Assembly: GCA_043228905.1 (NCBI GenBank)
Contig: JBHGNT010000004.1
Location: forward strand, 15,190,001-15,254,000
Reading direction: 5' to 3'
DNA length: 64,000 nucleotides
DNA from: Azolla caroliniana
Taxonomy: Eukaryota > Plantae > Polypodiophyta
Position 1 is the first letter of the stretch. Each line of letters begins with the position of its first letter. Of this stretch, positions 10,668 to 53,858 are shown piece after piece. The notes beneath the pieces were generated by a model. It saw nothing but the letters and a program-made list of their open reading frames with translations. It ran no database searches and was not told the DNA's origin. Position numbers and translations under genes: made by a program.

Positions 10668-10899
10668 GGGTCGAAGCACGCTACGGTGTACTAGAAAGGT
10701 GCCACACATTCTGAATCTCAGCCGTAGTTCTCCAGTTGCAAGCAGAAGGAGCATACCCATTATTGTTGGGACGCCCTTGGTTTAAAACGGCACATATCAA
10801 GCAGAACTTGAGGAGGAATATGATTACGTTTCGACGGGGAAAAGCGAAGATATGGGTACCAACACAGGGTCGAAGCACGCTACGGTGTACTAGAAAGGT
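10502..10899. repeat. 199-bp tandem duplication spanning the Gypsy/DNA-transposon junction
   Basis: 10502-10700 equals 10701-10899 with one substitution. Each copy includes the CACA TSD and the left TIR (10668 and 10867). Confidence 0.95.
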
Positions 10900-18152: not shown

Positions 18153-18162
18153 AACTCCCCCT

Positions 18163-21100: not shown

Positions 21101-22239
21101 GGAACGTGTCGGACATCCTTCAGCAGCATTTTGCATCCGGTCGGGGTTGTCAACCACACGTCTCCTATGCCGGCAATCCGGCACGTACCTTCATTTCCCA
21201 TCCGAACACAGCCATGCTCACCGGCTGTGTAGGATGAGAAGTATCTTCTTTCCGGGGTCAGGTGGAACGACGCTCCGGAATCGACCACCCAGGTCGTCTC
21301 ATCGCCGGCAATGTTTAGTTCACCTTCTTCGGTGATGAGCATGATTTCTTCCTCACTTGCCGCGAGTGCCGTTGTTCCTTTCCGGTCCTGCCCTCGCCGA
21401 TCCGAACCTCTCCGGTCCGTGGCTCCCCGGTATGCACCGTTTCTCTCCGGTGACTTCTTCGAATCGGTGTCGTCGGCTCCGTTGTCTTTTCGGTAATGCC
21501 GACAATTCTTTCGGAAATGCCCCGGCTTCCCACAGTGGAAGCATGTGGGCCTTCCTCTTGACTGCGACCGGGTCCCCGACTTCTCCCGTCTTTGCGGACT
21601 CCGGTTCCAGTGTCTTCCCCGATCCGATTCGGTAAGCAGCGCCTTCGAGTCGGAGACCGGTTCTTTATCTCTCCGACGCGCTTCTTCGTTCAAAATACTT
21701 GTCTTTACCGTTTGTAAGGACAAGTTATCTTCGGTGCAGGAGGTGCTGAGAGTCACCACCAAGTTCTCCCAGCTTTCCGGCAATGTACACATCAGGATGA
21801 TGGCTTGCATTGCATCCTCCAACGGGAACTTGATCGCCGCAAGCTGATTCACGAATCCCATGAATGTGCTTACGTGTTCCACCATACTCTCGCCGTCCCG
21901 GTACTTGAGATTCACTATCTTCCTCATCAGGGAGGTCCGGTTCAACGCATTCTTCCTCTCGTAGAGGCCCGACAGCTTCCGCCACATCTCATATGCGTTG
22001 GTGTCGTTCGCCACATGTTGTAGAACGCTCACGTCGACGTATTGCCGAATGGTTGCAACGGCTTTCCGGTTCAGAAGCCTCCATTCCGACTCAAGTACCC
22101 CTTTCGGTATTTCCGACCTGTCAATCGGTTCGTACAGGTCCCGAACAATCAGAAGATCCTCCATCTTGATCTTCCAGTCGGCGTAATTCTGCGCAGTCAG
22201 CACCATCATCCCCGGCTGCCCGCTGCCGCCGCCTTCCAT
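18163..22239 (-). CDS. Copia Gag-Pol polyprotein, 1358 aa, uninterrupted
   Basis: Single ORF with gag, CFHCGKPGHFRKNC knuckle, VDSGAS protease, GAG-pre-integrase, rve integrase, RT (LLYVDD) and RNase H (GSDMLTK). Confidence 0.96.
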   Translation of the reverse strand: MEGGGSGQPGMMVLTAQNYADWKIKMEDLLIVRDLYEPIDRSEIPKGVLESEWRLLNRKAVATIRQYVDVSVLQHVANDTNAYEMWRKLSGLYERKNALNRTSLMRKIVNLKYRDGESMVEHVSTFMGFVNQLAAIKFPLEDAMQAIILMCTLPESWENLVVTLSTSCTEDNLSLQTVKTSILNEEARRRDKEPVSDSKALLTESDRGRHWNRSPQRREKSGTRSQSRGRPTCFHCGKPGHFRKNCRHYRKDNGADDTDSKKSPERNGAYRGATDRRGSDRRGQDRKGTTALAASEEEIMLITEEGELNIAGDETTWVVDSGASFHLTPERRYFSSYTAGEHGCVRMGNEGTCRIAGIGDVWLTTPTGCKMLLKDVRHVPEVRLNLISAGRLDDEGYTGSIRNGVMKFSKGSLIVARARKINTLYLMNARLCPEELNVAADTAGELWHKRLCHMSEKGMKRLAEDNLIPVKHVHLEKCTDCLAGKQNRTSFHSRPPTRRGAPLELVHTDVCQVETKSHGGAQYFVTFIDDHNRKLWTAPLKTKDQGLCVFKELHARVERESGKKLKAIRADNGGEYRGQFQEYYRSKGIRLEFTVPKTPELNGLAERMNRTIMERVRSMLAHAKLPKGFWAKAMSTATYVINRSPSVPLDGDTPQKVWTGKEVSYRHLKVFGCLAYVHVAKDRRGKLDPKTRPCIFLGYGDDEFGYRVWDPVDKKIFRSRDIIFMEDKTLADWESEKKMKSCSKSTGEDQLYEEQSRPARDRLTLEDPAEDYEETEPAEEDENDTGTGPDPEMDSDEEESEEPVTEAPKRRYPLRERRAPRRFPEPEHVLLTDEGEPESFEEAKHDTKSRRWLSAMQDEMDSLHENHTYKLVELPKGKRALRNKWVFKLKPGDAGNPPRYKARIVVKGFQQKKGVDFDEIFAPVVKMTSIRTVLSIAASMDLEVEQMDVKTAFLHGDLEEEIYMQQPEGFEKKGKEHLVCRLKKSLYGLKQAPRQWYRKFDSFMTDEGYHKTQSDHCVFVKKFEGGDSLILLLYVDDMLIVGRDQVKIRTLKKALHRTFSMKDLGPARQILGMHIIRDRKKKQLWLSQEKYVTKVLHRFNMLEARPVGSTLPGNCKLSSKQSPKTKAEKEDMMKVPYASAVGSLMYAMVCTRPDIGYAVEVVSRYMSNPGKEHWNAVKWILRYLKGTANVCLRFGSGKPEFDGFTDSDMSADADTSRSTSGYVMTYAGGAVSWQSRLQKTVALSTTEAEYMAAVEAGKEIIWMKDFIRELGIQQEEYRLYCDSQSAIHLAKNAAYHSRTKHIQRRYHWIRERIEDKEFVLTKVHTDENGSDMLTKVLTPDKLEACRKRIGLERHPMPK

Positions 22240-22269
22240 TTTCTGCAGCAACCCGCTTTGATACCAGTT

Positions 22270-22872
22270 TGTTGAGAATCGACGCTTCGATTGACCTTCA
22301 CCACTCGGCCACAACCGAGTAATCGCGAATCAATGCAGCAGAAAATAGGAACCACAGAGAGAAACACACGTATACACAGGGATTAACGTGGAAAACCCTA
22401 GATGGGAAAAACCACGGGAGTACGAGACTCCAAACCAACACTATACAAAGAGAAGTACACAATGGCGAGCTGCAAGGCGACGACCTTGGGCTCGCTGTCC
22501 TCGCCACAGGCGGCGGAAATACACAGAGGCGTCGTCCTCTTCCTCTCCCACGCTCTATCTCTCTAACTCTCTCACGGCTGCTCACTCTTCACTCCTCTTG
22601 AGTGGAAAAACAGAAAAATGATCAACAACAACTTAACTGTTTGCCCTAAGTCATATTTATACACATATGACTTTCGGGCTATTTACAAATATAGCCACAA
22701 GGGCTCTTGGCAAACATATTCACAAATATGTCTCCGCATCCGTATCTCTCTCCGGGTACATTCGTCATCCGGCTCTGAAACCGGGGTCTTCATCATCCGG
22801 CTCCGTAACCGTAACCGGGCTTGCCGTCATTCATCTCCGGACATCCCATCCGGAGGGACCGAAATCCCAACA
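22270..22872 (-). repeat. Copia 5' LTR (603 bp)
   Basis: TG..CA ends, adjacent PBS. Confidence 0.95.
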
Positions 22873-24419
22873 CTCCTAGCGATCTTTATTGCCCTATCAT
22901 CATCACCGATGCCTATACACTCGTTCTTATTAGACTCTTGTATGTGGACCGTGGCAGTAGTCATGGTCAACTCCTCTTGTACGGTGGATGTCACCTCATT
23001 CTTAAGACAATGTTGTTCGCTCTGAGTACAATCAGGCCCACCTTCATTAGTAACGTTGTTCACTCTACACTCCTCATGGGATTCTGTACAATCAAGCTTA
23101 TCTTCAGGGAAAGAGATGTTCTTTCCACGATCCTCATGGGCTTCACAAGACACTACTAGCACATTCTCAGTACAATCAAGCTCCTCTTCATTACTAGCAA
23201 TGTTCTTTCCATGATCCTCATGGGAATCTTTAGACAGTACTAGCACATTATCAGTACAATCAGTCTTCTCTTCAACACTTGCCACATTATCAGTACAATC
23301 AGTCTTCTCTTCAGTACTTGCCATATTCTTTCCACACTCTTCATGGGCTTCAATCTTCTCTTCAGTACTTGCCATATTCTTTCCACACTCATACGCTTCT
23401 TTAGACATAGTGTTGTTTGTACATGCCAGCTGCTCTTCACATATGAATGCTTCGTTTTTCTCACAATCCTCTCCTTGCAAAGGTTAATTTGTTTCTGACT
23501 CTGCACTTGTGCTCCATGAAGTTCCCGATTCATTTGATTGCAGTTGGGAATCAGACTGCTCTTGTAAACCTAATTAATGGGATTCCAAAGAATATTGGTA
23601 TCAACTCACATACTCAAAAGTTTGCAAACAATGAACATAGGGTTTAGGGCCACATTTTTACCTAATGTTACATCGTCATACTGTACATCCGTAGATACCC
23701 CATTGCAAGTGGTGGGCTCGGTCATCTTCTCCACAACATCTAGGTGCTCAACAGTGTTGTTATGATCTATAATAACAACAAAAATAGGGTTGTTATGAGC
23801 TAAATCATTGTTTTCAAAGTCTGGCTTTTGACGTGTACCTGGGAGTGTGATAAATTCGTCTTCATGATCAGGTTTTGGACTCGTATCTCCGTCACCAAAT
23901 ATCATTTCATCATCAGCTAGTAACACAAGTACATGGTATTAGACAATGGATTAGGTTGACAATGCTCCAGACAGGTGAGAACTTATATGACTCACCATTG
24001 CATTCAACTTTGCCTTTCTTGCCATTTCCATACAACATTCTTGCAACATTTCTCTTCTTACTGGGCTCTATTTGTAAAGAAACTGCATTTCTCTTCTTAG
24101 TGGGCTCTATTTCTTGATGTTGACCGGAGCTTGGGGAATTTGTTTGTAGAAGCATATGTTCCACTGCTCCAATGGCCCTTCTCATACATTCATCCTCATC
24201 ATAAAAATCATAGGTTATTGGTAATGATGGTCCCTGAACCTTGGAATGTGCAGTAGATATTGAGGGTTTAGGCACAGGGGCTGGTTGTTCCATTACCTTC
24301 CCTGGCGTGGAGTTGCTTGACACTACAACATTCATTGCAAGAAACAAAAAAACCTTGAATGTTAGTACCATCATCTAAAATATATAATGTAGGTCACAAG
24401 AGCTGCTTCCCATTTTACA

Positions 24420-25330
24420 CAATGTACCAATCATGAACAATGTACTACTCACATAGTTCCTAAATTACTGAACTAGTACTAATAAGGAACATTGTACTGC
24501 TCACTTAGTTCCCAATTTACACGATTAGTACTAATCATGCACAATATACACAAGTAGTACTAATCATGCACAATATACTACTCACTTAGTTACCAAATTA
24601 CACAAGTACTAATCCCGAAAAATGTACCACTGACTTAGTCAAATTAATAAGTAGTACTAATCTTGAACAATGTACTACTCACTTATTTCCGAAATCACTG
24701 AACTAGTACTAATCCCGAACAATGTACTGCTCACTTAGTTCCCAATTTACACAAGTAGTACTAATCATGCACAATATACTACTCACTTAGTTACCAAATT
24801 ACACAAGGAGTACTAATCCCGAACAATGTAATGCTCACTTAGTTCCCAATTTACACAAGTAGTACTAATCATGCACACTATACTACTCACTTAGTTAGCA
24901 AATTACACAAGGAGTACTAATCCCGAACAATGTAATGCTCACTTAGTTCCCAATTTACACAAGTAGTACTAATCATGCACAATATACTACTCACTTAGTT
25001 AGCAAATTACACAAGGAGTACTAATCCCGAACAATGTACCACTGACTTAGTCAAATTACACAATTAGTACTAATCCTGAACAATGTACTACTCAACAATG
25101 TACCACTGACTTAGTCAAATTACACAATTAGTACTAATCCTACAAAATGTACTACTCACTTATTTTCTAGATTATTGATCTAGTACTAATAAGGTACAAA
25201 ACTAGTACTAATAAGGAACAAAGTACTACTCAGTTCCCAAATTACAAAACTAGTATTAATCATGAGCAATGTACTAGTAACTTAGTTCACAAAGTACAGA
25301 ACTAGTACTAATCATGAACCATGTAGTACT
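24420..25330. repeat. 52-bp tandem repeat with alternating A/B units (104-bp dimer) in a cargo-gene intron
   Basis: AGTACTAATC anchors at 24757, 24809, 24861, 24913, 24965 and 25017, with degenerate copies on both sides. Confidence 0.9.
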
Positions 25331-25906
25331 TACTAAGTACTAATCCAACAAATGTAGATTGGTATTTTGCACACAAGTAATACTAAACATGATATGTGTT
25401 CTACACACCTAGTTACATAACTTGTACTAATTACACCAACAGTATTAATCTTGAACAGTATTAGTACTAAATGTGATATGTGTTTGACACACCTCATTTC
25501 CAAATTACAATAATTGTACTATTATTCAGCAATTTACTATACACCTTTTTCCCAAATTACATTACTAGTACTAATTCCCAAGTTACACAAACAATACTAA
25601 CAGTCAACAGTGTGCTATAAGTATAGTGTTTACTAAACTAATACTAGGCAAGTTGCAATATAGATTGGACGATGTTGTACCTGGTTCCCTTTTAGTACTA
25701 CTAATTCTGGAAAATATCCCTTCAACTACACATACCAATAATATATTAAGAGTATTGCCAATACTAACCCACATAATTAGGGTTCCACATAATAGTTGTT
25801 AGAGATTACACTAAATTTGAAGTATGAATTGTGGCATACACTAGTTCTAGTCCAAATGTTAATTGACATCATATAATACAAACAATAGAATAGTAGAGCC
25901 ACATAC

Positions 25907-28513: not shown

Positions 28514-31500
28514 CACAACCAAGGAAGGGCACCGGCAAGGATCTGACACCGTTATATGCGGAGTGTGTCAATATGCTGGAAGGATTAGCAGATGAAGAAG
28601 AAGAGCAATACTTGCTGGAGAACCCGAAGATTGTACCTCTATTCAAAATTGACGTCGCGGAAGCGGTATCACCCTACTTACTGCATTCGGACGGAACCGA
28701 AGCGGAACCGGATAAAGAAGTAATCCGGGAGTTATAGCATGCGCAGGAGGCGTTGGAAAGGGAAATGGCCGTATCCCAGCGCGTAAAAGCGTCCCAATTA
28801 GAAAAGGTAAATCTAGGAACGGCGGAGGAGATAAAACCGGTGCACATCGCCAAAGAAATGAATGCAGAGAACAAAACGGTGATAATTACACTCCTCAACG
28901 AGTTTCGCGACGTCTTTGCCTGGTCGTACGAGGATATGAGAGGCCTGGATCCTCAGTTGTATCAGCACCAGATACATCTGAGCAAATATGCCAAGCCGGT
29001 AGCACAGCGTCGGTATCGGATGAACCCAAACTACGCCGCCAAAGTCAAGGAGGAGATCGACAAATTATTGAGGGTCGGCTTCATCTGTCCCGTAAAGAAA
29101 TCTACATGGCTGAGCCTGATTGTAGTCGTACCGAAAAAGAACGGCAAAATTAGAGTTTTTGTCGACTACCGGAAGCTCAATGCGTCAACGGTAACGGATG
29201 CATTTCCACTTCCGTTTACGGATGGAGTTTTGGATGCCGTCGCCGGTCATGAAGTCTACAGTTTCTTAGAAGGATTCAGCGGGTATAATCAGATCCGGAT
29301 GCACCCTGAGGATCAAGAGAAAACGGCTTTCATCACCGAATGGGGAGTGTTTGTTGCGGTGGTGATGATGTTCGCGTTGAAAACGGCACCAACAACATTC
29401 CAACGGATCATCATGGAGATCTTTGGCGAATACATACCGGCTTTTATGCAAGTGTTCCTTGAAGACTTCGCCGTCTATAGCAGAGAAGAAGATCATTTGT
29501 AGCATCTCAGACTAGGTCTAGAGAAGTGCAGGGCGTACCGGCTAAGCCTGAACCCAGCGAAGTGTGTATTTGGAGTGTCCAGCGGAACGCTACTAGGGCA
29601 TATAGTGAGCAAGGAAGGCATTGTCGTAGATCCGGACAAAGTGAAAGAAATCCGGGAAGCACTGGCACCGGCAACGGCAAAGGCATTGAGCCGTTTCCTA
29701 GGACAAATCCGCTGGCATAGCCGTATGCTCCGATATTTGGCGGACCTGGCTACACCTCTGCATGCAGCAGTACATCGAACACCGTTCCAATGGACCGGCA
29801 TCGAAGACAAGGCGTACCGGGCACTAAAGTTGTTTTTGTCACAAGCACCGGTAGTGCAGCCTCCGGATTGGAGTAAAGAGTTTCATGTGTTCGTGGACGC
29901 TTCCGATATCGCAATCGGCAGCGCGCTCATGCAACTTACCGAGCCAAGGTGGTACCAGCCAGTGTACTATGCCAGCCGGAAGCTATCCCAAGCGGAACGA
30001 AATTATTCTACCACGGAAAGGGAAGCTTTAGGATTGATCTACAATGTAACAAAATTCAGGCATTATTTATGTTGGGAGACAGGTCCCTCTGGATGGGAAG
30101 GGAGAAGAACAGTGCTGATGAACAAACTCGGCCGAGGCCGATAGGTAAATCTAGCAACCGGATGAGGAGTACCCGGCTACGGAGAGCCGGATGGTGCAGA
30201 CCCGGTGAGAACTGGATGAGGAGTACCCGGCTACGGAGGACCGGATGGTGCAGACCCGGTGAGAACCGGATGAGGAGTACCCGGCTACGGAGAGCCGGAT
30301 GCTCTGGATGAAGAGACATATTCGTAAATATGTTTCTGAGAATCCATCATGGCTATATTTGTAAATAGCTGAAAAGTCATATTAGTATAAATATGACTTA
30401 GGGCAAACTTTTAGTTGTTGTTGTCATTCTTTTTGGTGCAAGGAAAGAGAGAGCGCGTAACTGTGTACAGAGAGAGAGAGAGAGAAAGAGGTCGTTGCCT
30501 CTGTTGTAACCGCCGCCTGTAGCGAGGATCGTGAGCACGAGGTCGTTGCCTCCGTGAACTCACAGTTGTACATTCTAACATAGTGATAGTTTGCAGCCTG
30601 TGGGCTGCCGTGGTTTTTCCCTTAGTTTGGGTTTTCCACGTAAACATCCTGCGTACTCGTCTCTTCTTCGTGTCGTTCATTATTTCCCGTTTTCTGTGTA
30701 TGATTCTAAGCTCGGTTGTGGCCGAGTGTTGCGTATAGGGAGCATGCAGTTCCCGTCAATTTATTGGGAAGAAAGTTCTCCTTCCATGTAGATCATTCGG
30801 CACTCCTCTACCTAGTATCCAAAGCGTCACTTACCGGTAAGTTGGCCCGGTGGACTTTGTTGTTGCAGGAGTTCGAATTCGAGATATTCCACCGACCCGG
30901 CATACAACATGCGGTAGCAGATTATCTAAGCCAGTTAGATTCCGGGGAGACAGGTGACGGAGTACCGAACGAGTTTCTGGATGCAGAGCTTTTTCGAGTC
31001 ACCACGGAAACGGCAACAGATGAAACAGTGGCACAAGAAGATAAGTGGCTAACTAATATGCACCAGTTTCTAAGTACTGGATTGCCTCCGGAGGAGATGA
31101 ACCGGGACGAGAGAAAACACCTTCGGTACAGAGCCGACACTTCTGTTTCTTACAGGACACGCTATACCACAAAGGTGCGGACGGTATCTGGCGATGAGCG
31201 GTGCGCAGCAACAAGAAGGAGGTAATACTACGGGAGGCACACTGCGGAGTCACTGGAGGCCATTATGCCGGAGATGCGACGACAAGGAAAGTATGGCAAA
31301 GTGGCCTATGGTGGCCGACCACATTGAAAGATGCAATCCGGTATGCGAAGGAGTGTGATCTATGCCAACGAATGGGTCAGCCAACGGAACAAGCTCGGAT
31401 GCCACACCAGCCAGTCCTACCACTAGAACCATTCCAGAAATGGGGGTTGGATTTCATCGGGCCATTTAAACCACCGGCAATGAGAACCGGCAACCGGTAT

Positions 31501-32516
31501 GTGATCATCACGACAGATTACTGCACTAAGTGGGTGGAAGCGAAAGCCCTACGAGACAACACCGCGGTGCGGTGTCAACGACAAAATTCTTATACGAATG
31601 CATTTGGTGCTGGTACGGATGCCCCATAGAGCTGATAAGCGACCAAGGAGGGAACTTTCTTGGGCAGGTGGTAGAAAGTTTGATGATGTTCTATGCGGTA
31701 GTACATAAACGAAGCACAACGTACTATCCGCAAGCAAATGGGTTAGCTGAGTCGACAAACAAAACGCTCCAGAATATCCTCCGGAAGATCGTCAATGAAA
31801 ATCGGACAGATTGGGACACAAAGCTGCACAGTGCGCTCTGGGCTTACCGGATAGCGTACAAAACAAGCATCCGGACAACACCGTTCCGATTAGCATTCAG
31901 ATTGGAGGCAGTCATGCCGGTCGAGTTCCAGGTACCAAGCTTACGGATTCAGATTCGGGAACGACTCAATGAGAAGGAATCGGAGGCAATTCGGTTAAAG
32001 GCTCTGTGTGAACTGGAAGAACACCGACTGGCGAGCATTATGCACCTAGAATTGGAACAACGGAGACGGAAAGCATTTGTAGATCGGCACCGAAAGGGAA
32101 ACGAAAAGATGTTCGGGACCGGCAAGCCGGTACTCGTGTTCCAGACACGGATGGGCAAAATGCCAGGTAAACTACGGTTTAGATGGACCAGACCATACTG
32201 GATCACACGCGAGTTCAATGGGTCCTACCAGTTGGGGACACTTGCCGGGGAAGTGCTGGGCAAATGGGTCAACGGATTTAGACTAAAACCATACAAAGGA
32301 CCTATGCCTAAGAACCCATTTGAACGAAAGGCCGCCACCGAATCAGACGCCGGCAGGCCAACCATAACGGCAACCGGTGAAGACGACGGCTACCACCAAG
32401 CCAGTAAGGAGGAGCATGAGCCAGCAACCGAGGAGAGTAGAACGACGGCAAACCGACAAGGGGCCGGCGAGTTGCATGTTTCGGGCAAAGATCCGATAGG
32501 ACCGGAGAAAAACTAA
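28514..32516 (+). pseudogene. Element A pol continuation (RT, RNase H, integrase), disrupted
   Basis: RT 28753-29800 (VDYRKLN; FLED at the YxDD site), RNase H (VDASD, EREAL) split by a solo LTR, integrase (WGLDFIGPF, YYPQANGLAE). Confidence 0.92.
30070..30758 (+). mobile_element. Solo LTR of a Copia family related to 17522-22872, containing a 54-bp repeat x~2.6
   Basis: TG..CA with ATTTA TSD (30065-30069, 30759-30763). Shares ATATGACTTAGGGCAAAC and CTCGGTTGTGGCCGAGTG blocks with the Copia LTR. Confidence 0.9.
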
Positions 32517-32924: not shown

Positions 32925-35640
32925 ATGGACTGCCAAATGCTATCTGAAGCCGCCAAGAAATGGTTACGATAGCACGGTCTGGAGGGTTTCTTAACGATCA
33001 TGGAGGCAGCGCCACACAAGGAGGCCGAGAAGATTATAAAAGAAATCAACACGGAGGTGATCACGGAGGAGGCGATCCGTGCGTTAATAGGCCTTCTGGA
33101 GGGCGGTATCTACACGATCGACAATCCTACCCCCGAGCAACTCTTCAAATATTTCGGTGAGTACTCTCTAGCCAGCAAGGGCTATAAGACACAGGGCGGC
33201 GAAGATATGCTATTCCGGGAAATTGCCCGTGTGCTCCACGAGTTCGGTCACATGTACCCTCGACCCCCAGTCATGCCTCAGAACCGAGTAGGCTTGATCA
33301 TCGCAACGTACGAAGGAGTCAAGGTAGATTGGCTGGTGTTGATTTCCGATGGGCTGTGTACAACCATTGATATAGTAAGGGGAAAGGACAACAAGGAAGG
33401 CCGGAAAATATGGCATGCGGTGACACAATGGCTCACCCTGTTGGCGCCACCAGTCGAGCCCGTCCAAACCAAGAAGCGGGGAAGAGCAACAGACGGCACC
33501 CAGAAACCTGCTTCGAAACGGCAACAATTGTTGGCCTCCAAAGCCACTAAGGGGAAGACTGCCGAAGCAGAGAAGGCGGCGAAGGAGCGCGCCAGCCGGA
33601 AGCGACCGACGGACACGCACGAGAAGACACCGGCACGGGCCTTGAAGAGCCCACTCCACCGACTGGCGCAACAAGAAACGAACACCTTGGCGGCAAGAAT
33701 GAATGCCGGGACTCAGGCGGAAGAGATGGAGGAAGAACCCACGGAGCACCTCCAGCAGCGACCGGTGAAGAGCACCGCAGAATCAGCTGGGAAACTTTCG
33801 GACCCACAGAAGGATGGAACACCCGCAACTCACACGAAGGGAGGTACCGGAACCGGTTCGGATGGAACTGGTCACAGAAGTCCCGGCACAACAGGCAGCA
33901 CCGGCAAGCCCCGTCACCCAAGAGCCGGAGATACAAAGGCCAACCGCCCCAACCGGCCAAGAACAAGCAAACAAGGGGCGACTAGACGAAACACACTCAG
34001 AGCCGGAACGACAAAGTGGTCAGCTGGCAGAACCAGAAGCGCAGCTTGACGCAGAAAGACGGGACCAGCCATCGGCGAGTGAACCCATCAGCCAACTCTC
34101 CGTGCAAGCGCAACAACAGTGCACCAGCAGCCAATGGCTCCGGTGGATAGGAGACCAAATTGCCGGAGTAGTCGGATGCATAGAGGCGGAGGAAAGAGCA
34201 CAAACAGAACGGTTGCTCGTCACAACTAATGAACTGGAGATGGCTCGGTCAAGGATCCGGTGCCTAGAACAAGACTTGGATCGGATCACAAGAGATATGG
34301 CCAAAATGGCCTTAACCACAACGCAGGTCCAAGCACCGGTGACTCCGGTTGATGTACAGAAGAATAAGACCCCGGAGACACAAACTGTCCCGGAGAAAGA
34401 GGCGGCGCAAGCCCAAGAGCTTGCGGAATTACGAGATGAGCTAGCCGCACAAGAAGCATTACGGAGCCGCAAACGCGACTTGAAGAAGGCGGCCGAAGAA
34501 GAATTAAGAAAGACTACTGAGAACCTTCGCCGTGCAGAGGAAAACCTAAGTAAAGGACATCATGCTTACGACCGACTGAAGGAGGAAAAAGAGAAAGTGC
34601 TGCAGGAAAAAGACAAGCTGCGACGGATGGCGGAAACGGAAATCAAGCGGCTGAAGGAAGAGCTCCGGCAACAGAAGGACCGGGAAGACCGCGCGCGCCG
34701 TCAGATAAACCAAAGGCTGAAGCAGAAGACCGATGATTTCGATCATCTGCATCGGGACTACAAGCAGCTGGAAACGGAGCATCAGGAACAGATGGCCGAG
34801 CTCCGGCAAGAGGTTGATAGGGCCACAACGGCACTCGCCGAGGAACGAGCGGAAAGTTCTAGGCTATTGGAGGAAGCGGCGCATGACCGGATGGAGCTCC
34901 ACAAACAGAACCGTGAAGACAAGGAAAGAGCGTCAATGGTACTACAGAGGTTGCAAAAAACATATCAAACTCAATTGTCGCATTATAGGGAGCAGGAGGC
35001 GGACACGGTTCGGATCATCAAGCAGTTGAAGGAAGAGTGACAAGCTGCAGAAAATAAATTACAGATGGGAGCCGAACGGATCCAGTGCATCCTCCGGTCA
35101 TGGCTCACTAAAACCAAAAGCTTGATTGATGACAGCTCTGTGCGTTGGTGGGCAAAATGGGCGCAGAATACCACGGAACTCCAATTGCTTAGGGCGGATG
35201 TTGAAAACCGGCGAAAGGAGGGCGACGACTGTTATATGTTGACCTCGGAGGACTTCACCACCATCAGGGACGAGCTGGTGGAAGATTTCACAGCCCTGGT
35301 AGATGAAAAATTGGTGCAGGTCCGGTAGCTCGTAGCTCAACTGGACGATGATCGGTTCGAGGCTCAAATCCAGTTTGAAAGCTATGAGCGGTCCCGGCTC
35401 CGGGAAGAAAAAGCGCGAAAGGCGGCAACGGTCAACCTTAGTGATGAGGAACCGTCACCGGTGCAAAGACCGGAGGGGGAACAGGCCGGGGTCAGTCAGC
35501 CACAGACAACTCTGACGAAGGAACCAACGACGGAAACACCGGTGCCACAACCACAAACGGAACAACAGCAACAACAAATTCCCGACGAGCCATTGGAAAT
35601 TTTGGAGCAAAGCATTCTGGACATTTTGGACGAAGCGTAA
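32925..35640 (+). pseudogene. Extra 3' ORF of element A (globular N-terminus, low-complexity linker, long coiled coil), disrupted
   Basis: ORF pieces 33000-34049, 33814-35040, 35065-35328, ending at TAA 35640. Homologous to 36569-41456. Confidence 0.8.
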
Positions 35641-35652
35641 AAGGGCCAGATA

Positions 35653-35694
35653 GTGGGTTCGACGTACAAGGTACTGTCCCACGGGCGTGCCATG
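35653..35694 (+). other. tRNA-Arg(UCU) 3'-end-like sequence at the PPT position
   Basis: GTGGGTTCGA..GTCCCACGGGCGTGCCA followed by TG and then the LTR; no purine tract present. Confidence 0.65.
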
Positions 35695-36136
35695 TGTTAC
35701 CGACCGGTGAAGAAGGCTTAAGGAGGTCCAAACCAGAGTGTGAAAGGAATAGTTATTCGGGAACTATTGTAATTAGTAGTTATAAGAAGATGTGGACGGA
35801 CGGACCGGAATCGGTATGCTGATCCGGATCCGGAACGATTCCGTAAAGGTGTCGTTTGGCACCGTTTTGTATTTCGCACTGGAGACCTGTATAAAGGCCC
35901 GGTTACAATGTAATCATGAGAGGATAATTAATAAAGCGTATTGTCTTAATCTTCAAGTGTTGATTACCGTTCTGTATTTATTGTTATATCTTACGCATGT
36001 TAATTACGGATGGCTAAGTAATCGATTAAGGTCTAATTAAGCGTTGTGTCGTAAGTCATTCTGCCGTACCACCCTTTGGTGACGTGTCTTAAGTGGACAC
36101 CCTTGGTTAGGTTGTTGTCTGGCCCTAGCAATAACA
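35695..36136 (+). repeat. 3' LTR of element A
   Basis: Direct repeat of 7662-8103. Confidence 0.95.
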
Positions 36137-36568
36137 GGTGTAGACCATGATACAACATATTCTTTACCGGGTACTAACCGGTGTGGTTAATGATCGTAAT
36201 ACATGAGTAAGATATATTATAGTAAGCACAGAACGGTAATTAACTAAGCTTCCAGGATTAAATTAGATATAGAACAACAACACTTTCATTAATAAACCGT
36301 TATCTCATTACAAACAGACTAGGTCCTTTTATTGGTCACCGGTTTTGGGTACGAACCGGTGCCAACCGACAACCGGCCACAAACCGGTTTGGATCCGGAT
36401 CGGCATACCGATCCCGGGTTCGTCCGTTCGCTTCAATAATTATAGATTAATTCTAAAATAAATATCCCTTCCCCATTTGGGACTTTATCCGGCTTGTCAG
36501 TCTTTGCCAGTCAACACATGGCACGCCCATGGGACATACCTTGTGCGTCGAATCCCACGGTTCGCCCT

Positions 36569-39500
36569 TCAAGCTTCCTCCAAAATGTCCAGAATGCTCT
36601 GATCCAAGGGTTCTAAAGGCTCATCGGGTAGCTACTCTATCCTCTATTGCTGCTCCTGCTCCTGCTGCTTTGCTGCTCCTGCTCCACTAGTCTCTCCGGT
36701 TCTGTTGGTCCTGAGGCTTTCGGTTTTGGTTCTATTGGTTTGGGCTCCTCCTGTTGATGGTTTCCAGTGTGCAAGTTTCCATCCTTCGGCTGCTCCGTCG
36801 TAGTTATGTTTGGCTGGCTTCCCCTAGTTTCAGCTTCATTCAGCGCCTACTCCGAAGACTACTCTTCATTACTGATATTGATCGCCACAATTCTTTTGGC
36901 CACTTCTTGTTGTTGCCGTTTGCGTTCATACCGCTCGAGCTAGAGTTGGATATCCAACTGGTTGTCATCTAGCTGCTCCACCAATCGCCTCACCGCTACC
37001 AATTGGTCCCCGGCTAACGATAGGAAGTCGTCCAACAATTCCTCCCTTATGGTTACAATGTTCTTGTTACTCGTAAGAATATATGGGGAGGCATAAGGGT
37101 ATGTGTAATGATGTGGTTTATGTGTATGTGTAAAGCAAATGAGTGTGTGAGGATGAGTATGTGTATGGACACATGCACAATTATGTGCATGTGTACAAGA
37201 ATGTATAACGGTCTTATTTATAACGGTCATGTAACCGTTACATTAGATGTATTATATAAACCCCCTATGGGGTATGTAATGAGATATACATTTTTCCCCT
37301 CTCATTTTGTGTCATTTTGTATTTGTTTTCTCTCTTGCTCTCTCTCAATCGTAACCCCCTTGGGAGAATGGCTTCACCCCCCACCCCAACAACACTTTTG
37401 GCATGCTTGAAAGGCCGACCCTCCTTTGAGAAGAAATCACATCTCCCTCCCTCACTCTCCTCTCCAGCACTAATCTCTCTCTCTCTCCTTTGTTGTGTGT
37501 TGTTACTATCTATCTTAGAGAGAGTGGTTTTGCGCATAGACCTCTGTATGGTGATCCTTATTATTAAAGGTTCTAGAGATTTAGAGATTTAGTGAGATGA
37601 CTATCTTTTTGCTCTTCCCCCTATCTTTTGTGTGTTGTAATATGTCATTCTTCTTTTTTCCAAATTGACCTTTAACTTTGATTTCAAGAAAGAAACCCTA
37701 ATCTTTCTGTGCTTAGACGTAGCTATATTGTTCTCTCTCTATAGAAAGCAACTATCTACAAAGGAAAGAGAACGAATCTGTGGATATTTGGAAGTTTTGG
37801 CTTCTTCATCAGCGTTATCATTTTCACCATAATCACCATCACCATCATCAGATACCCTCCTCCGGATAGCAGCAACTCCTCTGGTGGGATGGGGGAGATT
37901 GAGGTATGTGGACCAGCAGCTCTGCCATAACCGGTAGCAAATCGGTATGATGGCGGGAATATAAGTTACAATTTCTATGTAAGGGGTTTGTCCTACATTA
38001 ATCTTTCACTAAGAAGTCTGATCTGATCATCCGAAAGTGGAGTAGAAATGGGAGCATGTCTCTCTCACAACATAGATGGAATTGCTAGTACTAATGAATA
38101 TGACTGTGTTGCTTGTTGTGGTGAACATGATCCTTCTCGATGAAGACGAAGAAAATTTAAAGGGAAAGAAAGGAAGAGGCATTTATGGAGATACTCACTG
38201 CTGATCCCATCAAATCGATGAGTACAATGCCACTACCCTCTCCATCAGCATAGATACTATTAAGGATCAGCATGGTTGCTTTGTTAGCAGACCTTCGAAG
38301 TTTGATTTTTCATAAAAGAAGTCCAAGAAGCACAGTGGCGAGAAGAAAGAGTTCAAGCCGCTACAGCCATTCGAGCGACGGTCGAACAATGGCCGGGTAG
38401 TGGTCAGACAATGCCCGAATAGCGGCGGCTGATGCCGAACGGCAGTAGCCGATAGTGGCCGAGTGGTGGCCAGATAGTGGTCAAATGGTGGCTGGAGAGT
38501 GGCCGAATGGTAGTGCAGATTGGTCAGACAAAATATATAAAACTCACTTCACATGAGGAAAGAAAAAATACATAAGCACACAACACGATTTCACGACCCA
38601 TGCCGCAGTGAACTAGCCGATTTGTGTATGATCCAATCGTGCATTGTGCTGACTGAACGAGAAGGTTCGAGTCAAGCAAAGCTCCAATCAAAGTTATCGA
38701 TCGTAGAGCAGTGATCTGGTTGAGGGATTTTCAACCGTTGAGACGACTGATGGAGTTCCGGTCGAGAAGAGTTGCCATGGCGAGTGGGTTCACCATGCAA
38801 TGCACTGTCCCACAGGTGTGCCATGTTTTACCCGTAAGAATATATGGGGAGGCATAAGGATATGTGTAATGATGTGGTTTATGTGTATGTGTAAAGCAAA
38901 TGAGTGTGTGAGGATGAGTATGTGTATGGACACATGCACAATTATGTGCGTGTGTACAAGAATGTGTAACAGTCTTATTTATAACGGTCATGTAACCGTT
39001 ACATTAGATGTATTATATAAACCCCCTATGGGGTATGTTATGAGATATACATTTTCCCCCTCTCATTTTGTGTCATTTTGTATTTGTCTTTCTCTCTTGC
39101 TCTCTCTCTATCATAACCCCCCCCTTGGGAGGGGGGTGAAGCCATTCTTGGCTTCACCCCCCACCCCAACAACAGTTCTCCTCGTCCAGTTTATAGAAAT
39201 CATTGTCATCCTTCCGCCGATTCTCCACATCCGCTCGCAGCAATTGTAACTCCACCACCTGCTTAGCCCATTGAGACCACCATTGAACCAAACTTTCTTC
39301 CACTAGTCTCTTCGTCCGCTCTCTCCTTGTCCGCACTAGATCACGGATCTGCCCCAGCCCCATCTTCGACTTATTCTCCGCGGCCTGTTTTTCGTCTTTC
39401 AATTGTTTGATAAGGCTCGTGGTTGCCACTTCTTGGCTTCTGTAGTGCATGAGTTGTGTCTGATAGGTCGTCTGAACTTTGTTCAGAGCCATTTTAGCGT

Positions 39501-46096: not shown

Positions 46097-47169
46097 TGTC
46101 GTGACGTGGCTCGCCTAGAAGCGTAGCGTTGCGCACACAAAGGATAACGTGAAAGTGAGGAAGCAATCACTAGGATTATGGACAGAAGAGACAAAAGAGT
46201 AGAGATGGAGTGAATAGAGATCAATAAGATATGACAAAATAGGATTTTTAAGGAATATAAGATAAGACAAGATAAGATATAAAATAATATATGAGAAAGT
46301 GTATGAAATTTATAATCATTTTCATGAAAGAGTTACAAAATGATTGTACACGTCGTTGAACCTCCGAACTTTGTCTTGCAAGGTAATCGCTCTTCTCTGT
46401 CTTGATCGTAGACCACTACAATCTTCACTTCAATATTTTGATGAAGATAAGGCTCGAACCGCCTCCCTCTTGTTGAGAGTTGACCACCACAACCACCAAG
46501 CTAGAGCTCCACCTTTATGTTAAACTTCTTCTCTTCTTTATCTATTTTTATGGTATCTCTTATGTAATACATAATTTGATTGATATCTCATACATATCTC
46601 TCCTTTTGATCTTCTCTTTCACCCTTTAAATAGGTGCCCCCATGCATATGATGCATTGGAGGGTACACGACATGCATGTGATGCATGATAAACATCTCAC
46701 TCATTTGAGCTTTTATGTATGAAACAATATATGCAATAAGAATAAACATGAAAATATAATCTTAGTGAGAAAGGACCTAGCCTAATGGTAGGTGTGTTGA
46801 CTTTGGTGTATGAGGTTGTGGGTTCGAGTCTCAAAATACTATTGAATACAACATACAACTTTATTTTTATATCATGAAGCAAATCCTTTATGTAATATAA
46901 AGCATATATTTTATGTATATTACTAGTATAGAGTAAATGGTAAGATTTGAGAGTCATAGGGTGGGGTTATTGGTTCAAGTCCTCTTTGTTCGTGTAATAT
47001 AATATATTTATCTATATATATATATATTATTTTTCTTTACATATATATCTAATATTATCATATGTGTTGTTAATATTATCTTTATATATAAAACATTATC
47101 AAATGTTATTTTAGTTACGTATTTATCTTATTGTAGACTTTTAATGTGAAGCTTTCGTACTTCACAACA
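46097..47169 (-). repeat. 3' LTR of element C with three tRNA-like A/B-box cassettes (46450-46505 -, 46773-46832 +, 46926-46985 +)
   Basis: Direct repeat of 52892-53858 with indels. Box pairs TAGCTTGGTGG/GGTTCGAGCC, TAGCCTAATGG/GGTTCGAGTC and TAGAGTAAATGG/GGTTCAAGTCC. Confidence 0.85.
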
Positions 47170-47209
47170 TCCACCCCCTCTAGACCTGCACATCCTCCGG
47201 CATGTGCCA

Positions 47210-50200
47210 CTATCTTTCATCTTCATGTTGATCTATTGGAGGAGGTTCAAACCTTTTCTTAAATACTTTTATCCTCTTTCCAGCTACCACGTTTAGGATT
47301 AGTGTCCCATTCAATTCACTAAGCTTATAAGTAAACTTATCATATACTTTTCTTACTATATAAGGCCCAAACCATCTTTCAACGAACTTGCGGACGATGC
47401 TATGTTGATTATCTAAACTGCTATCATACACGAGCACCCAATCTCCTTCTTCTATTTTCTTAGGTCAAATTCTATGAGTTTTATCAAAACGAATTTTATT
47501 CTTTAGTCGAGCCTCCAATCGTTGGGCTGGTATTTCTATATCTTCAGGTCGACGCTCTAATTGTTGAATTCGCAAAGCAAGTAATTCTTCTCTGCTCACC
47601 TCTTCTCTCCATGGAATAGATATCCATGACATAATTGATTCTTCTATCAGCATGATGGGCTTTTGGCCAAGTATCAATTCAACTGGCATAAATCCTGTTA
47701 CTGAACTATGAGTTGTTCGATCCGCCCATATTGCATAAGGTAGCATGCGTGGCCAATCTCTTATTTTACCTTTACAGCTTTTCACGATCGCCTTAACTAT
47801 TGGGCTATGTCCTCTTTCAATCTTTCCATTGGCTTCTGGATTATACGCAGTTGTAAGTGATAATTTGACCCCTATTCGGCTGAAGAATTCTCTAGCTTCA
47901 TCAGAGTCGAGTTCTCCTCTATCTGCAATTATTTTACCAACCCACCCGTAACGACATATTACATCTTCTAACAAAAATTTACATACAACTCTAGTTGTTT
48001 TTTGTCGTAGTGGTCTTCCTTCTACTTGGTTTGTAAGGTCTTCTCTTGCTAGTACTAAATATCGCATTTGACCTTCCCCAAGTGGCATTGTCACTAGATC
48101 GACCATCCATTTATAATGCATTGATGATGAATATGTTGGTTTTAGCTCATCTCGATACCGGATAGTTGAATACCTCTAGCAAACCTCGCAGGTTTCCACA
48201 AATTTCGTTACATCTTTATACATATGTGGCCACCAATACTTTTCTTTCAACTTCATAAATGTCACCCATATGCCTCTATGTCCTGCCCAAAAACTATCAT
48301 GGAATTCATTAATTAATTTTCTCTTAATGTCATCCTTACAAATGACTCGAAGAGGATTTTCAGTTGGCCCTTTCGGACGCCTCCATAAATGCCCTTCATG
48401 TAAAAAAAACTTGAATGCTCGTCTTCGAAATTCATTTAATTGTTTCTTCGACCATGATGGGTTTGCTTCTTGAGTCTTTAGAAAATTTCCTATTTCTAAC
48501 CATTGACCTTCATACTCCACATCTTTGAACATTATACTTACATTAAACTCATCATGAGGCTTAATAGATACTTGATGAGAAACTTGACGGCTTGTAGTTG
48601 CCCAATTCTTATCTTCAGCTTGCATCACCCTTTCATTTATGAACCTTGCTCTTGACAACATATCTGCGACTGGGTTCTCTTTGCCCTTTATATGCCGTAT
48701 TCAGGGTTCATGGTTCTAATGTATGCAATCCACCGAAGCATTGCAATATTCGGTGTGGTGCAACTTGCTATCATTCCGATGAGTGGCAAACAATCTGTTT
48801 CAACCACTACATCTACTCCGATCAAGTAATCTCTATCTGTTTTTAATGCAGTAAGCAAACCCCACAATTCTCGTCTAACTTGTGCATAGTTTCTGTCTTT
48901 CATTTAATATCTTTGCTCCAAATCTGATAGCATATCTATGTTGGTCTTCATCTTCTTGGTTGATAACCCAACCGATCCCGATTGGGCTAGTATCAAGTGT
49001 TACTATAATTGGTCTTTCACCTTTGTAGTCTGGTTGACGAAGAACTGGTGCTTTCAATAATGCTTCTTTCAGCTGTTGAACAACTTGTGTATGTTCATCT
49101 GTCCAAATAAACTTCTTCCCTTTTCTTAAAAGTTTGTAGAGAGGATCTGAGACATGTGCAAAGTGTGGTAGCCAAATAAGATTAAACACACATGCACCCA
49201 AAAATCTTCTCTCCTCTGTTACCGAGTCACAAACTTCCTTCATAATTGTATTGCGTTAATTTTGATTGGTGAAGGCTTCCTGCCATACCACCCACACATA
49301 TGGCCAACTATTAGAACTTCGTTTTGCCCAAAGCTAGACTTTGTTCCTAATAGTGTCAAATGTACCTGCTCAAGCTTATTTAAAATACTTTCACAATCAT
49401 TAATGTGATCCATCACAAACTTTCTGCAACCATTTCCAACCATAGTCTCATCTTTCTCTCTTTCTAAGCATCCCTTAATAGGAATATCATCTACAAATGG
49501 CATAGTTACCTTTGGGATGTATTCATGTAGAACTTTGTTCATTGCATTCATCATATGAGCAATTGAATTCATCGCACCTTGAGGTAGAGTGCACATTCGA
49601 ACCAACCCAATTGGTGTTTTCATTGTTGTGATATTGCAACTATCAATTGCTAGTTGAAATTGGTTGTATCCTGAATATAGGTCTCCCACAGAGTAAATCG
49701 CTCTTCCAGCAAAGGCTTTCGCAAATTTTTCAACGATCGGTCCGATTCCCGCATTTTGGATTGTGACTTTGTGGACTGGTTGTAGATCTTGAATGAATCT
49801 TAGAGAAGCATCTTTCTTTGGAACTATGAACCATCTATTGGAGTATGGTGCATTTGAAGGCTCTAAAATCTTCATCTTGACTTTATCCTTCAGTAGCTCT
49901 AACAATTGAGGTAATCGAGCTCTCGGTATTGCAATAGGTTTAAAATTCCAAGGAATATGAGGGATAGTAAATATTACCATTGGCGTCACCACCTTTGGAT
50001 CTACACAACTTTAATCTCCTTAGCTTTGAATGCGAACGCTTTCCCATGCCTAAATATCATTTCTTTGAAAGTCACGATCTCTGATTGCAGAAGAAATTCA
50101 CCCCCTCCAATTCTCAAGTTATTTATTGTCTCCGAAGTGAAGTGATGTCCGATCTTCTCTATTGGTCGAAGCATAGGCTCGGTTGTTGCTGCCTCCATCT

Positions 50201-52777
50201 TCTCTGCACTACCAAAAGGTAATGGTACTGCAGCAGGTTTGACCTTTTTATCTATTGTTTTGTATTTTGTATTACATAAACTTTCTATTTCTTCATATTT
50301 ACAATTATACCTATCAACCTCATAATACATATTAATTGAGTTTACATGTATCTTTCTAACATTCTCATCATCTTCTTTCAAATACATTTCTAACTCTTCT
50401 AAAGTATTTGCAAAAGAAATTTCTTCCATAACCCTTTCAATCTGCTCTTCCATTTCAATTACTCCATTATCCTTCAATGCCTGCTGAAATAGATTAACAT
50501 TCTTTTTCAAGTTCCTCTTGCATTCATACATCCTAGTTTCACATATAGCACCACTTTCAGAAACATGAAATGACTTATTCATATGTTGTAATGCCCTATA
50601 TGAGGGTCTTTTAATAATGGGACTATTGCAACCCTCACTTGCCACAGTCCTAGTCAAAAACCTGATTATCAAAATCATCACAATCTTTTGGTATTGAATC
50701 ATCATGAAGCTCTTGCTTGTTCCTCTCATGATTTGGGCGAACTGTCATAAATTGTACAGTTCGTCGTCCATCTTGGATACGGATTTTCGCATAGGCAGAA
50801 CCATTATCGAGGACTTTGGTCTCCATCTGTACCGCTGTAATGTATGGTTGCCCTAGGATTATTGGATAGGTAGATCCTTCCTACACAAAGAAATGTTGAT
50901 CTACCTCTATATCACCAATAGTGACCTTTACATTTGGGCATGCACCAAATAAATCTTCCGTGACTGATGTGGTAGCTTTTACTCGCCAACCATGTTGAGT
51001 ATCAATTGGCCATCTATCTTTCTTGTAAAAATCAGCACTCATTATATTTATTTCAGAACCATGATCAATAAGTGCCATCACGGGGTCTGGAACATTTTCA
51101 ATCTTCACATGATGCTCAGTAGTGGCTCTTGCCTAACATTTGTGAGAGTAATGGCTTCTTACATCTGTTGAATTTATCATTGAGGTTGATGCATGTTGAG
51201 AGTCAACAACGATATTGTTTGACTCGTTGCTCACCACTTCATATGCTACCTTTGGATTTGTCTCTTTAATCTGCTCATTTACTTGCTTCTTTCTTCGCAC
51301 AACATCAATTATTTCATCATGAAATTCCTTTTTTGCAATACCTAACACTTCTCTTAATGTAAATTCTACTCGACTGTCTAGTATTCTTGTTTCTAAAACT
51401 TTCTTTAAATCTGTATCTTTTTCAATATCAGACATTAATTTGAATAAAGGACCTAATTTACCTTTTTCGACCTTTGCATCCATCTCTTTTCTTTTTCTTT
51501 CTCTTGTCTCATGCTTTTTTGTTGAGCCAATCTCATCATCCGGTCTTTTCCTTTTTTCTTCCACTATCAGCTCATGCTCTTGGTGTTCTGCCATCTGAGC
51601 ATAGACCTTCATAGCATGTACTGGAACATCCCATCCAGTGTTTTTCCTTACAGAATCTCCGGCAACATGAAGGTCTTCCATCTTCATCTTTTGCTTTTGT
51701 GCGGTACTTACAACCTTCTCCCAGAATGATGATCGGGATGGCATGTCATCGAGGCGCATTCCTGCCGTTGCCGTGTAGTACATTGCAGAAGCCTTCTTTG
51801 CTTCAACTTCTTCAAATTTAACCTTAACACCACCATCACCAAAGTTCTTTGTAAGTGGACTTTTAGTTTTAGTTAAATAAATGTTACCATTTTTCCAATA
51901 CACCAAGTCTCGATTTTCCATGTCTTTATATTCTTCACAATCACGTAGACGATGTTCGAGACTATCGCACCCCATGCATCGGGGGTCGGAATGGTTCCCT
52001 TGACCTCAAATTTTGAACATTCTCAAGCTTTGCCACTTTAATTGTTAGATCTTTCATACTTTGAACTAAATCATCAAGAAAAGACTCACTCTTAGTTCCG
52101 ATCATTTCGTGTGGTTGATGCACCATTTCGTGTGATGGTTCTCGACCATGGCTTTGAACTTCGATGTTTTGATCAAGCCGATTCATGATTCCCACATGTG
52201 GTATTTGTAGCATTACACCATTCCTTTGCATTCTTTTCATAAATTTATTACAAGCATTTGTTACCTCATTCCAATCTGCCGTTATACCATCCTCGGTATT
52301 TGGCAATTCAAGCATAAATTCCAATTCTTTTCTATATCTCTTGTCAACTGCCTGCAAAACTAAAGCAACCTTTTGCCAAGACAAAGAATTTCTTTCTTCT
52401 GGCTTTAAGTGTCCATACATTCTATCAAACTCTTTTTTTGTGTCAGCCACAGATAACCCTTTATCTTCGTTTAAGATCCATTCATGAAATGAACGCATAC
52501 TAACTCGAGAGAAATCTTCACGAGAATATTCAGACACAAGCGCTTCTTTGAATGCATTCCAATTCAAACTATGCAATGCTTGTATTTCACGAATTCTATC
52601 TCTTAATTCCATTTCCACTAATTTATAAAAGTTTGCTATCATATTGACATCATTCACACCAAACATTTCCATTTCATCATAATATATATTGACATACTTT
52701 GAGATATTTGTGCCATCAAACACACCAATCTTCTCTCGGACTTCTTGTAAGGCATGAAATAATTGATCTTGATTCAA
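47210..52777 (-). pseudogene. Element C gag-pro-pol, disrupted
   Basis: Gag 51133-52777, protease 50881-51108, RT 49240-49992 (FVDD), RNase H, integrase 47210-48661; stops and frameshifts. Confidence 0.92.
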
Positions 52778-52891
52778 TTATTCAATATATAACCTTACCG
52801 GATCCTTGTACTCGTACTTGCCATGTTGATGTTGATCTTTACTTTAGATGTCTCTTCTACTTCCCCGTTTCACGTCGGGTTCACCAAATTG

Positions 52892-53858
52892 TGTTGTGGC
52901 GTGGCTTGCCTAGAAGCGTAGCGTTGCGTAGACAAAAGATATCGTGAAAATGAGGAAGGAATCATTGGGATTATGGACGGAAGAGACGAAAGAATAGAGA
53001 TAGAGTAAATAGAGATCAACAAGATATGACAAGATAGGATATTGAATGATATTTGAAGGAATAAAAGAGATTTATAATTATTTGATGAAAGAGTTACAAA
53101 AGTGGTTGTAAGCATCGTTGATCCTTTGAACTTGGTCTCACAAGATAATCTCTCTTCTCTTTCTTGATAGTAGGCCACAAGAATCTTCACTTCAATATTT
53201 TGGTGAAGATAAGGCTCGAACCGCCTCCCTTTTGTTAAGCTCCACCTTTATGTTGAACTTCTTCCTTTCTTTTTCTATTTTATGGTATCTCTTATGTAAT
53301 ATATATTTGATTGATATCTCATACTTCTCCCCCTTTGATATTCTCTTTCACCATTTAAATAGGTGCCCCCATGCATATGATGCATTGGAGGGTACAAGTC
53401 ATGCATGTAGTGCATGAAATGCATGTGATGCATGATCGCCATCTCGCTCATTTGAGCTTTCATGTATGAAAAAATATATTGCATAAGAATAAACATGAAA
53501 ATATAATTTTAAAAAGAAAGGACCTAGTCTAATGGTAGGTGTGTTGACTTTGGTATATGAGGTTGTGGGTTCAAGTCTCTCAAATGTTATTGAATACAAC
53601 ATGTAACGTCGTTTTTCTGAAGCAAATCCTTTATCTTATATATATCAATAGTATAGAGTAAATGGTAAGATTTGAAAGTCATAGGGTGGGGTTATTGGTT
53701 CAAGTCCTCTCTTGTTCGTGTAATATAATATATTTATCTATATATATATATATGTTATTTTACTTTATCTTTATATATAAATCATTATCAAATTTTATTT
53801 TAGTTTCGTATTTATCTTATTGTAGACTTTTAATGTGAAGCTTTCGTACTTCACGACA
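52892..53858 (-). repeat. 5' LTR of element C
   Basis: Adjacent to the tRNA-Trp PBS; TG..CA ends. Confidence 0.88.

Follow-up and report, generated by a model that had tools for sequence, protein, structure and literature searches.

What primes the second DNA strand of an LTR retrotransposon whose 3′ LTR is preceded by the end of a tRNA in place of a polypurine tract (PPT)? To our knowledge, LTR retrotransposons and retroviruses are all taken to prime their second strand from a PPT. First-strand priming varies, and whole tRNAs, half tRNAs and self-priming are all in use. The question arises in a stretch of 64,000 nucleotides from Azolla caroliniana (contig JBHGNT010000004.1, positions 15,190,001 to 15,254,000; hereafter the window), where a preliminary description had placed a tRNA 3′ end 2 nt before the 3′ LTR of an element called A and had seen no purine tract there. 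The LTR elements of the window and their parts are as follows.

7662 to 8103, plus strand: 5′ LTR of A, with TGTTA...TAACA ends
8111 to 8120, plus strand: minus-strand PBS of A (TGGCGACCAC), presumably of the tRNA-Arg(UCG) type, after a 7-nt spacer, with only 4 nt in common with the tRNA-Arg(UCU) complement
8159 to 10879, plus strand: gag-protease part of A, broken (tblastn of P0002)
28516 to 32363, plus strand: RT-RNase H-integrase part of A, broken, with an insertion at about 30070-30760
32940 to 35640, plus strand: extra forward ORF of A, broken, stopping 12 nt before the motif described below
35695 to 36136, plus strand: 3′ LTR of A, identical to 7662-8103 at 420 of 442 positions
36137 to 36516, minus strand: first part of the 3′ LTR of element B, the remainder lying at 7661-7580
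37065 to 39174, plus strand: 2.1-kb non-coding LTR element nested in B, with LTRs at 37065-37394 and 38826-39174, the TSD GTTCT and a short PBS from 37399
17522 to 22872, minus strand: copia element with an open 1388-aa frame, the 5-bp TSD CTCCT and a normal PPT
46097 to 53858, minus strand: gypsy element C, with DUF4100, a PBS presumably of the Trp type and a normal PPT; Phygy-like, and used as a control
56299 to 60616, minus strand: a further gypsy element, whose RT groups with several Adiantum proteins in another clade

Element B is a relative of A on the minus strand, and its 3′ LTR lies in two parts because A inserted into it; the 5′ LTR of B was not found within the window. The nested stack spans 7580-46113, with A inside the 3′ LTR of B between imperfect 4-bp flanks (AGTG/GGTG) and the 2.1-kb element inside the extra ORF of B with its 5-bp TSD. 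The gag-pol region of A is in three pieces, and A carries about 18 kb of later insertions, inside which lie tandem arrays of 146-bp units (13609-15005) and 52-bp units (24367-25584). The extra ORF of A matched no Pfam family at cut-off and only unnamed Atlas clusters at 0.90-0.91; its relatives comprised nine matches of about 630-700 aa. The smallest element had been labeled a TRIM, and at 2.1 kb it is above the limit of <1 kb in the TRIM definition (PMC10886601, available in part).

The motif that stands in the place of the PPT consists of these parts in A and has counterparts in the other two elements.

35653 to 35692, plus strand: 40-nt motif of A, adjoining a TG spacer and then the 3′ LTR
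35653 to 35662, plus strand: part 1, nt 49-58 of tRNA-Arg(UCU) (5′ strand of the T-stem and the T-loop up to A58), identical to the tRNA of L029 and L024
35663 to 35675, plus strand: 13-nt insert at the A58/G59 boundary, with a 4-bp hairpin (35664-35667 with 35671-35674)
35676 to 35682, plus strand: part 2, nt 59-65, from the alignment to the L029 tRNA
35683 to 35692, plus strand: part 3, nt 67-76 with the CCA end and without C66, from the same alignment
35693 to 35694, plus strand: TG spacer between CCA and the 3′ LTR of A
36519 to 36558, minus strand: motif of B, followed by a TG spacer at 36518-36517
38784 to 38823, plus strand: motif of the 2.1-kb element, followed by a TG spacer at 38824-38825

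Coordinates and purine counts agree with the preliminary description of the junction in A, and the motifs that it listed for B and the 2.1-kb element were present as well. Within the final 30 nt ahead of the LTR, the longest run of purines was 3-4 in A, B and the 2.1-kb element, compared with 10 in the copia element; both copia and gypsy element C, which are unrelated LTR elements of the same window, have an ordinary PPT, and no motif copy was found near the gypsy element at 56299-60616. A canonical PPT-primed LTR element was rejected as an identity for A, B and the 2.1-kb element, in which the purine tract next to the 3′ LTR is absent. All three motifs run from a CCA end through TG into the LTR, and each lies outside the LTR and occurs once per element. 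A pattern written from the motifs themselves matched three times in the window, compared with no match in 100 dinucleotide shuffles. Of the features thought to unite the three, the terminal CCA and the TG spacer held up, and the GTGGG/CCCAY stem was unsupported as an RNA stem. The spacer length cannot be fixed from A alone, since its 5′ flank happens to end in TG. In the 2.1-kb element, the clean 5-bp TSD GTTCT sets the start of the 5′ LTR at 37065 and excludes TG from the LTR, and the spacer is thus 2 nt; the 3′ LTR of this element begins with TTTT, a decayed TGTT. LTR pairs and TSD together fix the LTR boundary where it had been described. A reversed orientation of the elements was also rejected because the LTR pair, the PBS, pol and the extra ORF all lie on the strand of the motif.

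The motif of A aligned exactly with nt 49-58, 59-65 and 67-76 of the tRNA found at the related-element locus L029, so the element lacks C66 and carries 13 extra bases between A58 and G59. The mirror site thereby holds 17 of the last 18 bases of tRNA-Arg(UCU), 2 nt from the LTR; 18 nt is the usual limit of a PBS, and the A58/G59 break coincides with it. Our reference is an element-borne copy of the mature RNA and not a host tRNA gene: L029:1190-1265 contains a whole mature tRNA-Arg(TCT), CCA included, in PBS orientation (ARAGORN; 71 bits in Rfam). As a template for contig searches, we used L024, a tRNA-Arg(TCT) with the same 3′ end from a prokaryote-genome pattern scan that gave four matches. 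In all four public runs containing A, contigs cover the 3′ 30 bases of the L024 tRNA, the best of them without a difference, and in these four runs the loose ends of the contigs continue as an LTR end in one direction and as the remainder of a TCT-anticodon tRNA in the other. The window itself yielded no tRNA gene with ARAGORN, and positions 35400-39300 no Rfam family at the gathering score. The earlier reading of the motif as an inverted PBS for tRNA-Arg(UCU) is borne out by the occurrence of the same 3′ end in L029 and in the contigs of 4/4 runs. Judged by its sequence, the site has the form of a mirror-image PBS, that is, a sequence complementary to the 3′ end of a mature tRNA, with its CCA, and separated from the end of the LTR by a few bases. 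In L029, the whole tRNA-Arg(UCU) adjoins the tail of the extra ORF without a gap and is followed by the motif and the 3′ LTR. This arrangement looks like a short derivative element in which plus-strand DNA ran beyond A58 to the far end of the primer tRNA before jumping.

Related copies were collected from metagenome contigs with a search pattern made of the motif's 3′ part and CCATG. With 26 of 64 parts covered, the scan returned at least 119 loci and 120 matches, which were divided by contig-name prefix into 61 matches (60 loci, one assembly series) and 59 others. The 61 related copies were picked by the motif 3′ part, and relatives without the motif are therefore invisible in this set. After CCA-TG, itself part of the pattern, TGT follows in 61/61 related copies and TGTT in 57, and TG follows in none of the 59 others. 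C66 is absent from 61/61 related copies even though the pattern allowed it. The T-arm part (tRNA nt 49-58), which lies outside the search pattern, matched at 7 or more of 10 positions in 58 of the 59 related copies with enough upstream sequence, compared with only 2 of the 59 unrelated matches. In the 58 copies, the gap between the T-arm part and the core is 13 nt in 42, 14 nt in 15 and 16 nt in one. The purine run within 40 nt of the LTR does not exceed 4 in 54/59 related copies. The extra ORF was found upstream on the same strand in 23/61 copies and on the opposite strand in none, with no match in 35 and too short a sequence in three. Its conserved end (an ILD-type peptide, then a stop) lies just upstream of the motif in 25/62 copies.

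The 62 copies with enough flank, the three of the window included, fell into 18, 28 and 34 clusters at 70, 80 and 85% flank identity, respectively, and the motif is also kept in non-coding derivatives. Conservation of the motif and its 2-nt spacer across many subfamilies is evident from these copies and their 18-34 flank clusters. Contigs aligned to 35200-36200 point the same way. Summed contig depth peaks over the motif in 4/4 runs; because contig depth cannot rank parts, we used loose ends instead. At least 56, 80 and 47 contigs start at 35653 in three runs, and at least 33 and 46 stop at 35698 in two, so that loose ends pile up at the motif edges and many divergent families have just this stretch in common; tens of contigs match A over 35653-35698 only. 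The feature is real and conserved. Its host range so far is narrow, with three organism labels that are probably ferns. No family with another tRNA at this position was found, a look-alike search in other genomes gave no match, and viral contigs gave no relative by integrase query or RT alignment; pattern scans of viral contigs gave 23 and 3 loci, none with a retroelement match by tblastn.

The site on the other side of the element tells a different story. The PBS TGGCGACCAC is common to A, L061, L092 and L071, and a TGGCAC-type PBS occurs in the small elements and in L055, L059, L069 and L105. The motif is complementary to the TGGCAC-type PBS over 9-14 nt and shares only TGGC, through its complement, with the PBS of A, L061, L092 and L071. 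The duplex between the PBS region and the motif of A was no better than shuffles (426/500, compared with 43/500 for the small element). The minus-strand PBS varies between families and the motif is constant, which speaks against a simple pairing of the motif with the element's own PBS. The minus-strand PBSs are short, about 9-14 nt (8111-8150 in the window; L061, L092, L059, L069 and L105), and by eye a small hairpin comes after several of them, with CGAAC or TGAAC, the T-loop complement, next to it. They may be split in the same manner as the 3′ site.

In 49 distinct rows, 77.9% of cells in the 4-bp insert hairpin are paired, with 24 two-sided changes; no shuffle among 500 scored as high, a count that is not a probability because the rows are related, and slid controls gave 24-66%. 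The two recurrent substitutions in the core, G53>A (13/62 copies, 8 clusters) and T55>C (10/62 copies, 6 clusters), leave G-T or U-G wobbles in a hybrid of tRNA and minus-strand DNA. G67>A, also a wobble, is found in 30/52 distinct motifs, compared with nine in which this CpG carries C65>T. Transitions of the G>A and T>C types are common. Mismatching changes occur as well (C56>T in five clusters, G49>T in five and an unmatched G57 in about 16 copies), and the wobble pattern is thus modest support. Folding of the tRNA end with each minus strand gave three paired segments with C66 unpaired for 49/49 distinct motifs, an outcome that was largely expected from the sequence match and that used RNA parameters as a stand-in.

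For a fold of the element RNA itself, a full acceptor-stem partner lies upstream in 4/61 copies, compared with three in shuffles. G53>A breaks the RNA T-stem with an A-C mismatch in 13/62 copies, and no compensation was seen in the T-stem, a test whose sharpness suffers because some rows are out of register by one base and because the pattern fixes the 3′ columns. An RNA hairpin over the acceptor end, suggested by minimum free energy, has two pairs that are broken in 31 and 29 of 49 rows. On the plus strand, RNAalifold predicted a weak hairpin (-4.2 kcal/mol) that spans the CCA/LTR junction and has no two-sided change in columns that the search pattern fixes. The proposal that the element RNA folds into a tRNA-like primer is thus unsupported, with neither an upstream acceptor-stem partner nor compensated T-stem mismatches, and priming by a second tRNA fits better.

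To place the elements, we compared their domains and RT sequences. A and B belong to Ty3/gypsy, with two LTRs with TG...CA ends, a PBS and the order RT-RH-INT. Pfam identified RT, RNase H and integrase in the scanned open stretches of A and B and in the full-length relatives P0002 and P0005; the same scan found no chromodomain after integrase, which sets them apart from chromoviruses, and no extra archaeal-type RNase H (aRH). The nearest proteins are metagenome sequences with 73-92% identity; the named ones, from Adiantum, Riccia and Selaginella, have about 49-57%. In a quick RT tree of 123 rows, which left out 10 of 133 with a short alignment or none (element C among them), A and B group with one Adiantum protein in a clade of 22 rows (SH-aLRT 99). 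This clade stands apart from Rosaceae, pine and aRH-bearing rows in a tree built without REXdb reference Athila sequences. By their domain content the elements are thus not Tat, and aRH-bearing proteins form a separate clade.

How, then, is the plus strand started? We think that a second host tRNA, tRNA-Arg(UCU), annealed to the minus-strand DNA, probably primes it. After the first strand transfer, RNA at the site would be cleared by RNase H, and the tRNA would pair with minus-strand DNA in three segments (67-76, 59-65 and 49-57), with C66 bulged and the insert hairpin looped out at A58. RT would extend from CCA through TG into U3, after which the tRNA would be removed by RNase H and the 2-nt overhang trimmed by integrase, as at a normal PPT end. 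We suggest ourselves that the C66 bulge, 10 nt from the tRNA 3′ end, could position the RNase H cut that removes the primer; Ty3 RNase H is described as cutting 10-12 bp from a flexible spot (PMC5371799, available in part). The position of the motif and its 2-nt spacing, which mirror those of a PBS, argue for such priming, and the constant loss of C66, which weakens the predicted hybrid, argues against it. That loss would cost nothing if the element's own RNA resisted RNase H at the motif, were cut after CCA and served in cis as the plus-strand primer, imitating a tRNA end that RT accepts, in effect a functional PPT of new sequence. Such a primer would sit exactly at the PPT position and need no new step in the cycle, and several of these families already use this tRNA end as minus-strand primer, so that their RT already starts from it. 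Even so, we consider a cis primer unlikely. It does not explain why the T-arm part and the hairpin, 23-40 nt upstream, are conserved or why changes of the wobble type occur, and no tRNA-like fold accompanies it (acceptor partner, T-stem and acceptor-end hairpin are all unsupported). A primer copied from the element's own RNA has no obvious need for identity with a host tRNA, so the conserved T-arm part counts in favor of the tRNA.

Two further readings separate the motif from priming. One gives it a role as RNA, either in pairing with the 5′ PBS or in organizing the genomic RNA (circularization, dimer formation or packaging), with another primer for the plus strand. The motif-PBS complementarity in families with the TGGCAC-type PBS and the weak junction hairpin would suit this role, and the structural 3′ tRNA-binding sites of Ty3 and Drosophila Gypsy offer a precedent in the parts of the sources available. 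We nevertheless regard it as quite improbable: the PBS of A and its three companions has only TGGC in common with the motif's complement, the A duplex does not exceed shuffles, the junction hairpin shows no two-sided change in its pattern-fixed columns, and plus-strand priming is left unexplained. The other makes the motif a one-time capture of tRNA sequence without present function, or the product of a misplaced LTR boundary. Capture does happen, as this lineage copies whole tRNAs into its DNA (L029). A relic would hardly persist in 18-34 flank clusters and in non-coding derivatives, be all that tens of contigs have in common with A, or contain a covarying hairpin, and the boundaries are fixed by LTR pairs and TSD; conservation largely refutes the relic reading, and we give this pair of explanations very little chance. 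Returning to the second tRNA, we find it reasonably likely that a Ty3/gypsy lineage of non-seed plants dropped the PPT and primes both strands with host tRNAs, in many cases a different one for each, at split sites that mirror each other, and that pairing of the plus-strand tRNA with DNA creates a three-way junction in which the bulge may set the RNase H cut.

Comparison with known systems was made against sources that were each available in part. Canonical Ty3/gypsy elements and retroviruses, which use PBS/PPT reverse transcription (PMC5371799, PMC12789967), resemble the Azolla elements in having two LTRs, a tRNA PBS after the 5′ LTR, the order gag-PR-RT-RH-INT and a conserved signal abutting the 3′ LTR. 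The 3′ signal here, however, is not purine-rich and reproduces the 3′ end of a tRNA in the sense orientation. Ty1, Ty3 and Drosophila Gypsy have a bipartite or second PBS, and the 3′ tRNA-binding sites of Ty3 and Gypsy have structural roles (PMC5371799, PMC1635307). There, too, the tRNA is bound in separate segments that include the T arm, and a tRNA-related site lies near the 3′ end. Those sites are complementary to the tRNA in genomic RNA, serve minus-strand priming or RNA bridging and coexist with a PPT in the text available, whereas the site described here has its complementarity to the tRNA on minus-strand DNA only and extends over the CCA end.

Among the non-chromovirus OTA lineages, Athila, Tat, Phygy and Selgy share with A and B a length of about 10 kb, the lack of a chromodomain, an extra ORF after pol and a non-Met tRNA PBS after an AT-rich spacer of 4-7 nt (PMC6317226; 10.64898/2026.03.20.713144), yet A and B form a separate RT clade with a fern protein. 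Brassicaceae Athila has an Asp/Asn PBS and a conserved PPT junction (10.64898/2026.03.20.713144; PMC6317226) and was rejected by features, as the PBS here is of the Arg type and there is no PPT junction. Tat elements (TatI-III, Ogre, Retand) have the extra RNase H (PMC6317226). Phygy, with a tRNA-Trp PBS and a 4-bp NCGN TSD (PMC6317226), was rejected on the AGTG/GGTG flanks of A, the 5-bp TSD of the small element and the Arg-type PBS. Helenus and TRIMp3 likewise have tRNA-derived sequence in LTR elements, non-autonomous ones included, but theirs is a tRNA-like sequence inside the LTR that acts as a Pol III promoter, with PBS and PPT kept (PMC10886601); they were rejected because the motif here is outside the LTR and neither Rfam nor ARAGORN finds a tRNA at it. 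Set against the lineage table of PMC6317226, the elements match no named group well.

Where the available parts of the sources treat second-strand priming, it is by a PPT (PMC6317226, PMC11963269, PMC10886601, PMC4139406, PMC12789967, PMC5371799, PMC6890710, PMC4408406, PMC1635307, 10.64898/2026.03.20.713144). We found no description of tRNA-primed plus strands or of a PPT-less LTR lineage in the full-text literature, judged mostly by title and abstract and with subscription journals and Repbase reports largely beyond reach, and the route of plus-strand priming proposed from these sequences is likely to be new. Under either leading mechanism, a second tRNA or RNA in cis, a high-copy lineage without a PPT breaks the PPT rule. 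Such elements will be misjudged by annotation filters for which a PPT is decisive, and could end up on the wrong strand in a tool that uses the PBS only. The lineage also offers a direct way to test which properties RT and RNase H require of a plus-strand primer.
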